DNA of 20,966 bases, from IMG/VR virus record IMGVR_UViG_2737471839_000026, positions 1 through 20,966 of that record; one strand, 5' to 3'. The position numbers are program-made. Shown here one piece after another: positions 12,001-15,000 of the stretch (the stretch's first letter is position 1; the number at the start of each line of letters is the position of its first letter). This stretch comes from a virus. Taxonomy: Duplodnaviria > Heunggongvirae > Uroviricota > Caudoviricetes.

Positions 12001-15000
12001 CAGAAAAAGCGGCGAGCAAAAATGCTGTCAGCATATCCGTACAACAATTTCAGAAGTGAATCGTACGATTACCTGTAACCGATGCGGATTGGCTTTAGAT
12101 CCGTTCGAGCTTGTTCTCGACCGTGCGAGAAACGGTGAAAACATAGTGTCTGAGATTAAATCACTCTATGCAAAGCGGGATGCTCTTCGTGAAGCTGTGG
12201 CAAAACTTGAACGTGAAGAGAAAAACGCCAAAGCCCGGTTACGAGCAGCCAGGACAGCAATACTGTATGCGGAAAATGACCTTAAAAATATTGAGCAGGA
12301 GGTGAATCGATGACCTGGCCTGAAGCATTCACAACGGTAGGAATTGCGATGGCGGTGGCGCTGGTGGTGTATTCGATTTGCCGCTGGGGATAAATCGCCG
12401 AAAAAAGATCCCGACACAAACATGAGCCGGGATCTTTGATTTATATAGCCTACGAATCCGCCAGTAAGAGAGGGGGCGGACGGTTAATTCTAACACCGGA
12501 ATGATGTGGGTAAAAGTTTATAAGAAATCGGTTTCATAACTTTGCCCACCATGATAGATACCGACAATAAAGACTTTTCTGCTATCAACGGCAAAAGCAA
12601 TAATCGTTCTGTGGCGGAAATGAGTTACCCGCATCCCCTGGCGAATATCATCGCGTTTATTGCCCCGATGCGGGAATGTAGAAAACCCATCAAGATAATC
12701 AAGAAGCGCATTGGCATAATTGTCAGCAATGACGTTCCCTGCTTTCTCCGTTATATACCTGTGCAGGTTGATTATTTGTTGTTCGGCCTCAGGAGTAATG
12801 ATGACTTCATATGTCATGCAGATTACTTCCCGGATCGAATCGCGGCGCGAACCTGTGAAATGGAGCGTCCGTTGTTTGGGTTTTCGCGGATAGAATCAAG
12901 AGAGGGGGCGGCTGAATGCGTTAACCACGCTTCGATTGCTTTATCGCGCTCATTCAGTGCGCGAAGCCCTTCACGAATGACCTCGCTTTCTGAAGCATAG
13001 GCACCGGAAGCCACACGGGCGCGCACCATGTCAGCCATTTCGTTAGTTAATGTAATGCTGAATTGTTGGGTTGTACGCATGGTAAACCTCACGGAGTAGG
13101 ATAGAACACCATTCGATGATAGCACGTTGCCTGTTGACGACAACAGAAATCAGAGACAATATTGCCGCACGCCAGCTTGAACAACTGGCACCTGCTGCGC
13201 CAGCAGAGAAAACCGATGGCGCACAATACCAAACATCACAATTCTGATACCGCCCCTGCCAGCAGGCAAGGGCGGTGTTCTCACACATTCAAATATGACT
13301 GGTATCAGCACGATCCCTGCACTGAAGAACAGGCCGAATGGCTGATTCATAACTACCGCAGACGTGGGTATGAGTTTAAGAAAGCCCTTAGCCTCGACTA
13401 CCGTCACTGGATAATCTACGTCAGGCTCCCTTATTCCGAACGCCCGCCGCGTCCGTCCCGCACATTCCAGCAACGCATCTGGAGGTAACGTGCGGGTATT
13501 ACTTCGACCTGTTCCGGTACCGGAACTCGGGCTGGTGGTCCTTAAGCCGGGGCGTGAATCCATGCAGGTATTCCATAACGGCAGGGTGCTGGTGGAGCCG
13601 GAACCGAAAAACATGCGCGGTATGCCGTCCGGAGTCGTTCCTGCCGTTCGCCAGCCGCTGGCGGAAGATAAAACATTGCTGCCGTTTTTCAGCGATGAGC
13701 GTGTGATTCGTGCTGCTGGCGGCGCTGGCGCACTGTCTGACTGGCTCCTGCGTCATGTTAAATCCTGCCAGTGGCCTCATGGAGACTATCACCACAGTGA
13801 AACCGTCATACATCGTTACGGTACCGGCGCAATGTTGTTGTGCTGGCACTGCGACAACCAGCTGCGCGACCAGACATCCGAATCACTCGGGCAGCTTGCT
13901 CAACAAAATCTGACAGCCTGGATGATTGACGTCATACGTCACGCAATAAGCGGTACACAGGAACGGGAATTATCGCTGGCTGAATTATCCTGGTGGGCGG
14001 TCTGCAATCAGGTGGCGGACGCGCTACCGGAGGCAGTATTACGTCGTTCTCTGGGATTACGTGCGGAAAAAATCCGCACGGTTTACCGCGAAAGCGACAT
14101 CGTACCGGGAGAGCAGACCGCCACCAGCATACTGAAGCAGCGCACAAAAAATCTTGCGCCGTTGCCTCACGTCCACCAGCAACAAATCTCGCCACAGGAA
14201 AAGACGGTGGTCAGCATTGCCGTTGATCCGGAGTCTCCGGAATCTTTCATGAAGCGACCTAAACGTCGCCGTTGGGTAAATGAGAAATACACACGCTGGG
14301 TGAAGACACAGCCGTGTGCGTGTTGTGGTAAGCCAGCCGACGATCCCCATCACCTGATTGGTCACGGTCAGGGAGGGATGGGAACAAAGGCCCACGATAT
14401 TTTTACGTTGCCGCTGTGTCGGGAGCATCACAACGAGCTTCATGCGGATCCGCAGGCGTTCGAAGAAAAGCATGGTTCCCAGATTGATTTAATTTTTCGT
14501 TTTCTTGATCGCGCCTTTGCAACCGGCGTGCTCGGGTAAAAGAGGTTACTGATGCGTATAGAGTTTGTTTTGCCTTATCCGCCGACGGTGAATACTTACT
14601 GGCGACGCCGTGGCAGCACATATTTTATATCGGAAGCTGGTAAGCGTTATCGCCGTGATGTGGCACTTATTGTCCGCCAGCAGCGGCTGAAATTAAATCT
14701 GCCCGGAAGGCTGGCGATAAAGGTTATCGCCGAGCCACCGGATAAGCGTCGTCGTGACCTGGACAATATCCTGAAAGCGCCACTGGATGCACTGACACAT
14801 GCGGGACTGCTCATAGACGACGAGCAGTTTGATGAAATCAATATTGTGCGCGGTCAGCTCGTTCCTGGTGGGCGGCTGGGCGTGAAGATTTACAAAATTG
14901 AAAGTGAGTGAGCGTAAATATGATATACCCGGAAATTACAGGCAAAAGCGGTGAGCATTTACGCCTGAAAACGCTGGAAAGTGTCTGGCTCCAGGGGAAA

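Follow-up and report, generated by a model that had tools for sequence, protein, structure and literature searches.

Two toxin-antitoxin systems with solved structures, ParD1-ParE1 of Caulobacter crescentus (3KXE) and ParD3-ParE3 of Mesorhizobium opportunistum (5CEG, 6X0A), are encoded by two-gene operons in which the antitoxin, a ribbon-helix-helix (RHH) ParD, comes first. Here we compare these and other described systems with a parDE operon at positions 12518-13080 of a 20,966-nucleotide stretch of DNA from a virus of the Caudoviricetes (IMG/VR record IMGVR_UViG_2737471839_000026; the whole stretch is referred to below as the window), and we assess an exact 14-bp direct repeat associated with this operon. 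The window operon has the same organization as the chromosomal systems, with which it shares low similarity (E 4e-4 for the antitoxin and 0.011 for the toxin). The chromosomal operons belong to the chromosome core, whereas the operon of the window lies on a lambdoid prophage. A ParE-family toxin is likewise found on a lambdoid prophage in the PaaR2-PaaA2-ParE2 system of CP-933P from Escherichia coli O157:H7, a system proposed to stabilize the prophage segment (PMC8630535). The CP-933P system differs in that it is placed in the immunity region and comprises three components, among them an antitoxin of the PaaA2 type and a regulator resembling CI; the parDE operon examined here has two components, an RHH ParD, and a position in a nin-like slot.

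Other phages provide comparisons for the slot and for the antitoxin. In phages vB_EcoM-606R7 and vB_EcoS-689R5 the left flank is shared with the window up to 12394, the end of a small open reading frame (ORF), and the right flank is shared from 13166, the start of a series consisting of a 90-aa ORF, DUF968, rusA and Q. Between these points they carry a hok-type cassette, the genes of which are unrelated to parDE and specify another type of toxin ('host killer protein' in phage annotations). We take relBE-hokD, located upstream of ydfU in the Qin prophage of K-12, to be a comparable occupant of the slot. Phages that carry Shiga toxin 2a (Stx2a), among them LC727840, phi346 and phi349, contain an orphan ParD with 86.7% DNA identity to 12804-13163, a segment covering the promoter region and the full-length ParD (positions 2500-2860 in LC727840). 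In these phages a lipoprotein-like ORF and a HigA-like gene take the place of the toxin, and the position equivalent to the second copy of the 14-mer differs at 5 of 14 bases. An orphan ParD next to a HigA-like gene has been reported in the enterohaemorrhagic E. coli phages phi346 and phi349 (PMC12502783).

From the evidence given below, we conclude that the locus is very probably an ordinary two-gene type II toxin-antitoxin moron cassette, in which the 14-bp repeat is a coincidental match between the 3' untranslated region (3' UTR) of the operon and codons 57-61 of parD and represents neither a junction or target-site duplication nor an element under selection.

The parDE operon

The identity of the operon is supported by several independent family assignments. 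The toxin matches PF05016 (ParE_toxin) at 40.4 bits (cutoff 23; E 4.5e-10), with positions 1-89 of the 89 profile positions covered, as well as phrog_5232, annotated 'toxin' (E 2.4e-43). The same protein is present in RefSeq as WP_000220601.1, 'RelE/ParE family toxin', and by sequence it has a weak match among solved structures to the ParE3 chain of PDB 6X0A (E 0.011). The antitoxin matches PF03693 (ParD_antitoxin) at 32.1 bits (cutoff 21), TIGR02606 (Caulobacter CC2985 ParD family) at 53.8 bits (cutoff 46.2), and phrog_6494, 'antitoxin from a toxin-antitoxin system' (E 1.7e-56); its RefSeq accession is WP_001260977.1, and both PHROGs fall in the moron category. Residues 3-51 of the antitoxin, the N-terminal RHH part, match by sequence the ParD chains of 3KXE (E 3.9e-4), 7YCV, 7B22, 6X0A and 5CEG. 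The antitoxin gene precedes the co-oriented toxin gene, the stop codon of ParD being 5 nt upstream of the toxin ATG. These data indicate that 12518-13080 represents a two-gene type II ParD/ParE operon for which ParE-type activity (poisoning of gyrase), rather than the ribosome-dependent cleavage of mRNA typical of RelE, is predicted on the indirect basis of the ParD-type partner and of ParE3 in 6X0A as the best solved relative. The initial interpretation, made from the sequence without database searches (the sequence-only reading), had called this a ParD/ParE module in a nin-like region, and both points are borne out, the first by Pfam, TIGR02606, PHROGs and the RefSeq annotation, and the second by the position of the module directly upstream of the 90-aa ORF, DUF968/YdfU, RusA and Q. 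The module is already known, being named in RefSeq, in PHROGs and in the record of phage ArgO145. No paper was found in a literature search on the four RefSeq protein accessions, and neither protein matched the anti-phage defence models of PADLOC.

Signals for expression of the operon were examined by consensus scanning and by RNA folding. A putative sigma-70-like promoter precedes parD; it was obtained from the consensus scan, which gave 3 promoter-like sites in the region against 1.5 expected from shuffled sequences and hence no enrichment. The segment 13081-13145 has hardly changed even in the orphan-ParD allele, which is 86.7% identical overall; the nucleotide diversity (pi) of the segment is 0.032 (pi was computed over 39 distinct haplotypes). 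A search of 13060-13200 for operator candidates detected no repeats of 8 nt or longer, either direct or inverted. An intrinsic terminator of the operon was not called by a simple consensus scan and was found by RNA folding. Two base pairs of its stem exhibit compensatory double changes (AU to CG and UA to GC) among 24 distinct alleles.

Based on these features and on analogy with the ParD and ParE families, a minus-strand transcript would start from the promoter at about 13116-13143, pass through parD (12823-13080) and parE (12518-12817), and continue through a 120-nt 3' UTR to the terminator at 12398-12437. ParD would bind its own promoter by means of the N-terminal RHH domain, with its C-terminal part neutralizing ParE. 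ParE classically acts on DNA gyrase. Once the labile antitoxin was no longer made, ParE would poison the cell, and such poisoning upon loss of ParD may favor retention of the prophage segment.

The operon lies antisense within a series of rightward genes, consisting of replication genes followed by DUF968-rusA-Q, and the hairpin that forms its terminator is bidirectional. To reach Q, rightward transcription must thus pass the terminator and cross the toxin-antitoxin genes antisense. A promoter-like site at 13134-13163 on the plus strand, a consensus match only, faces the 90-aa ORF/DUF968/rusA/Q genes, and its -35 element overlaps the -35 of the divergent parDE promoter-like site. If both divergent promoters are real, autoregulation by ParD could also affect rightward expression toward Q.

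Distribution and edges of the cassette

The comparison set consisted of 86 related loci and of 375 E. coli genomes, the latter being those among 5,426 complete E. coli genomes in which the module is present (approximately 7%). A prophage adjoining ompW in E. coli RM9088 matches the window at 99.3%, and both genes are named there by RefSeq. A scan of GTDB species representatives with the toxin yielded two confirmed loci only, in Salmonella (80% amino-acid identity) and in Noviherbaspirillum (49%), so that deep comparison beyond Escherichia is limited.

Homology among the relatives breaks at approximately 12308, 12394/12395, 12518-12520, 12804 and 13163-13176, and across the 86 loci no breakpoint was found at 12466-12479 or 12898-12911, the positions of the two 14-mers. 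In the Stx phage ArgO145 the block 12308-13163 is present at 98.4% identity in another context, where it is bordered by an HNH/hypothetical gene pair on one side and by an antirepressor near the integrase on the other. In 13 loci, among them E. coli SCU-171 and a chromosome of Salmonella enterica, the match begins at the toxin stop codon (12518-12520). In more than 100 records of Stx2a phages, homology is limited to 12804-13163; these records contain the promoter and the complete parD gene, whereas about 5 codons are all that is left of the toxin. The 3' flank of the operon is confined to this cassette, being found in 326 genomes compared to 328 that have at least 80% of the cassette. We conclude that the operon is a moron cassette in a variable slot between replication/ea22-like genes and DUF968-rusA-Q, and the homology edges suggest that it moves as a block with a left edge at about 12308 or at 12394 and a right edge at 13163-13166. 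The hok-type occupants of the same interval indicate that addiction or killer modules have settled in this slot repeatedly. The orphan ParD that is widespread in Stx2a phages is a toxin-deleted derivative of this cassette.

Two further observations concern the edges themselves. Mosaic boundaries recur at the toxin stop codon, where the 13 loci run into downstream sequences of at least three unrelated kinds, including a 117-aa lipoprotein gene. At the left edge of the shared block is a small ORF for a hydrophobic 27-aa peptide, which is conserved in both the parDE-type and the hok-type occupants of the slot; a query containing this ORF matched 1,387 E. coli genomes. The 27-aa ORF had no family match in Pfam or PHROGs and is absent from the RefSeq annotation.

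The 14-bp repeat and its possible origins

The sequence AAGAGAGGGGGCGG is present on the plus strand as an exact direct pair of 14-mers with a spacing of 432 bp. An exact 14-bp direct repeat about 430 bp apart had been noted in the sequence-only reading and is real, although the coordinates given there (12467-12480 and 12896-12909) are off by 1-2 bp (see the table for the positions). No further copies occur in the window, even when up to 2 mismatches are allowed. The bases flanking the two copies are unlike on both sides, and no extension past 14 bp, gapped or ungapped, was obtained with a repeat search using a 7-nt seed or with Smith-Waterman alignment of the region downstream of the toxin against the antitoxin region under two scoring schemes. 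We considered whether the repeat stems from a duplication of the parD 3' end that has since degraded, and rejected this, because the local alignments yield the bare 14-mer only.

The expectation by chance was estimated from dinucleotide-preserving shuffles. At least one exact 14-mer direct pair was found somewhere in the window in 59% of the shuffles; the real window contains three direct repeats of at least 14 bp. When the two copies had to lie within 500 bp of each other, the proportion was 4.3% of shuffled windows. The repeat is thus locally striking, yet it is only mildly unusual given that the whole window was searched, amounting to roughly a one-in-twenty event with inverted repeats not counted.

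The two copies were then compared among the 86 loci. In 29 loci, which are all of the same type as the window, the two sequences agree with each other; in 43 they differ, and in the remaining 14, which nonetheless have an intact parDE, copy 1 is absent. In none of the 43 differing loci had the same change occurred at both sites. Among the relatives 5 of the 14 sites of copy 1 vary and the length of its G-run changes. For copy 2, 9 of 11 variant alleles are synonymous and keep the peptide AAPSL. Nucleotide diversity was 0.050 for copy 1 and 0.065 for copy 2, similar to the 0.054 of the whole 3' flank and within the 0.044-0.082 of third codon positions of both genes; the antitoxin gene as a whole has a pi of 0.019. 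These patterns suggest that constraint at copy 2 is exerted on the peptide rather than on the DNA, and they give no apparent sign of selection on either 14-mer or on their mutual identity.

Some results weigh against an ordinary ParD/ParE cassette with a coincidental repeat. When the shuffles were restricted to the 771-bp cassette, just 0.14% of them contained an exact 14-mer repeat. No specific NCBIfam model matched the toxin. In addition, consensus sequences suggest that the E. coli alleles with this 3' flank descend from a common ancestor that had the same 14-mer at both sites, and a past function or event is therefore possible.

The sequence-only reading had suggested that the 14-mers may mark a junction at which the toxin gene was inserted or recombined, and had named their inclusion in a longer conserved sequence unrelated to the module boundaries as an outcome that would refute this. 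The comparison with related prophages places both copies inside the longer conserved block 12308-13163, with the breakpoints elsewhere and the copies drifting independently at a neutral-like rate, so that the junction is not borne out. A scar left by an event that brought in the toxin gene, either as a target-site duplication or as flanking recombination sites, would account for a repeat that is exact, direct and locally improbable and that brackets the toxin gene. The bracketed segment, however, is not a coherent unit, for it would start in the middle of parD at codon 57, and ParD is full-length and collinear in alleles without copy 1 (SCU-171, Salmonella and others). The repeats do not coincide with the ends of homology at 12308, 12394, 12518-12520, 12804 and 13163-13176; loss of the toxin in the Stx2a phages involves a break at 12804 and not at 12898-12911; and the copies have not been kept identical. 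An empty site with a single 14-mer was not found in IMG/VR, in the JGI metagenomes or among the E. coli matches listed. We consider a scar exceedingly improbable. The same repeat might be functionless and still serve as a substrate for slipped-strand or RecA-independent deletion, since the direct 14-bp copies 432 bp apart bracket exactly parE and the toxin-binding C-terminus of ParD; such a deletion would leave an RHH stub and allow safe loss of the module. Orphan ParD genes do occur in Stx2a phages, but the known ones arose from the other break, at 12804, and have a full-length ParD. Furthermore, the 25-mer predicted for the deletion junction is absent from IMG/VR and from JGI metagenome contigs, and when a synthetic deletion query was compared to E. 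coli genomes the best of the matches listed, out of 320 high-coverage records, were all two-piece matches to intact cassettes. A role as deletion substrate is accordingly very unlikely.

A different possibility is that the 14-mer is a functional nucleic-acid element found twice on the parDE mRNA, such as a site for one protein or small RNA in the coding region and in the 3'-UTR hairpin loop, or that copy 1 is the 5' end of a small RNA that is derived from the 3' UTR and extends from a promoter-like site at 12514-12487 to the terminator. Copy 1 is part of a predicted hairpin with a CU-rich loop, which lies upstream of the terminator supported by covariation. In 12 loci one base is lost from both arms of this hairpin together, and a C-to-U change results in a G-U pair, although no clear covariation was seen for the hairpin. 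A promoter-like site (12514-12487; TTTACC, 16-nt spacer, TG-TAGAAT) ends 7 nt before copy 1, but, as described above, such sites are not in excess over shuffled sequences. Conservation of either copy does not exceed that of third codon positions, with the flank changing at a near-synonymous rate, and copy 2 is constrained as codons only. The G-run of copy 1 varies in length, intact modules with unrelated 3' flanks indicate that the flank is dispensable in other alleles, and the two copies, being identical rather than complementary, cannot pair with each other. There was also no Rfam match: the whole window at the gathering threshold gave three tRNAs only, and 12250-13300 gave nothing at E<=5. 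We therefore give little credence to a functional element. A specific version of such a role, in which the 3' UTR yields a small RNA or a structured element and the loop of copy 1 shares a partner with the parD copy (an RNA-binding protein, a small RNA, or ribosomes through interactions like those of an anti-Shine-Dalgarno sequence), would tune the ParD:ParE ratio by titration or mimicry; we regard this as highly speculative and would hardly expect it to be correct. A chance match in an ordinary cassette remains the explanation that we favor.

Other elements of the window and implications

The coordinates of the operon, its signals, the repeat and the neighboring elements are compiled below.

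Table 1. Positions in the window of parDE, the 14-mers and associated features
Feature	Position	Strand	Remarks
paaR2-paaA2-parE2-like module	6294-7293	-	toxin 6294-6584; PaaA2 antitoxin 6584-6778; helix-turn-helix (HTH) regulator within 6793-7293
Hydrophobic 27-aa small ORF	12310-12393	+	MTWPEAFTTVGIAMAVALVVYSICRWG; left edge of shared block; overlaps stop of upstream gene (ATGA)
Predicted intrinsic terminator of parDE operon	12398-12437	-	12-13 bp stem followed by U6; same hairpin faces upstream plus-strand genes
Predicted small 3'-UTR hairpin containing copy 1	12456-12481	-	GUCCGCC, 12-nt CU-rich loop, GGCGGAU; in minimum-free-energy and centroid structures
14-mer copy 1	12466-12479	+	3' UTR of parDE operon, ending 38 bp past toxin stop (12518-12520); on mRNA strand, 5' arm and loop of small hairpin
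ParE-family toxin gene	12518-12817	-	99 aa plus stop
ParD-family RHH antitoxin gene	12823-13080	-	85 aa plus stop
14-mer copy 2	12898-12911	+	within antitoxin gene; minus strand encodes A57-A-P-S-L61
Putative sigma-70-like parDE promoter	13116-13143	-	TTGTCG, 16-nt spacer, TG-TATCAT; consensus scan only, function inferred

The window contains a second module with a ParE-family toxin, in agreement with the sequence-only reading, according to which the prophage carries two such toxins. The toxin at 6294-6584 matches PF05016 at 66.5 bits, its antitoxin matches PF21217 (PaaA2) at 81.7 bits, and the regulator matches HTH_3. The two ParE-family toxins of the window are approximately 19% identical. 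This module is situated in the immunity region, opposite ydaS/ydaT-like genes (with a match to YdaT_toxin), and the region 6294-8085 corresponds in type to the immunity region of CP-933P, where paaR2-paaA2-parE2 has been described in the same organization (PMC8630535). A dicB homologue is found further to the left in the RM9088 annotation of the matching prophage.

An operon resembling that of subtilase cytotoxin is present at 17482-19409 on the plus strand. It has a B-A-B arrangement, in which an S8 peptidase of 343 aa is flanked by a B subunit of 137 aa and a second B-like ORF, of 144 aa. The S8 peptidase matches SubA (PDB 2IY9) with an E value of 5.6e-157. Q, an AraC-like regulator and three tRNAs (14908-17085) precede the operon and the holin follows it, which puts it where stx lies in Stx phages.

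As a discovery the parDE module carries little weight, and the useful result is a negative one. Without evidence from a population of related sequences, a short exact repeat beside a gene pair that looks mobile should not be taken for an insertion scar. The real mosaic edges are at gene boundaries, and the parDE pair, the 3' flank and the small upstream ORF are exchanged as separable pieces. The orphan ParD of the Stx2a phages could neutralize the ParE of this cassette in co-resident prophages, and its origin as a toxin-deleted derivative may be of interest for work on toxin-antitoxin systems and on phage counter-defence.

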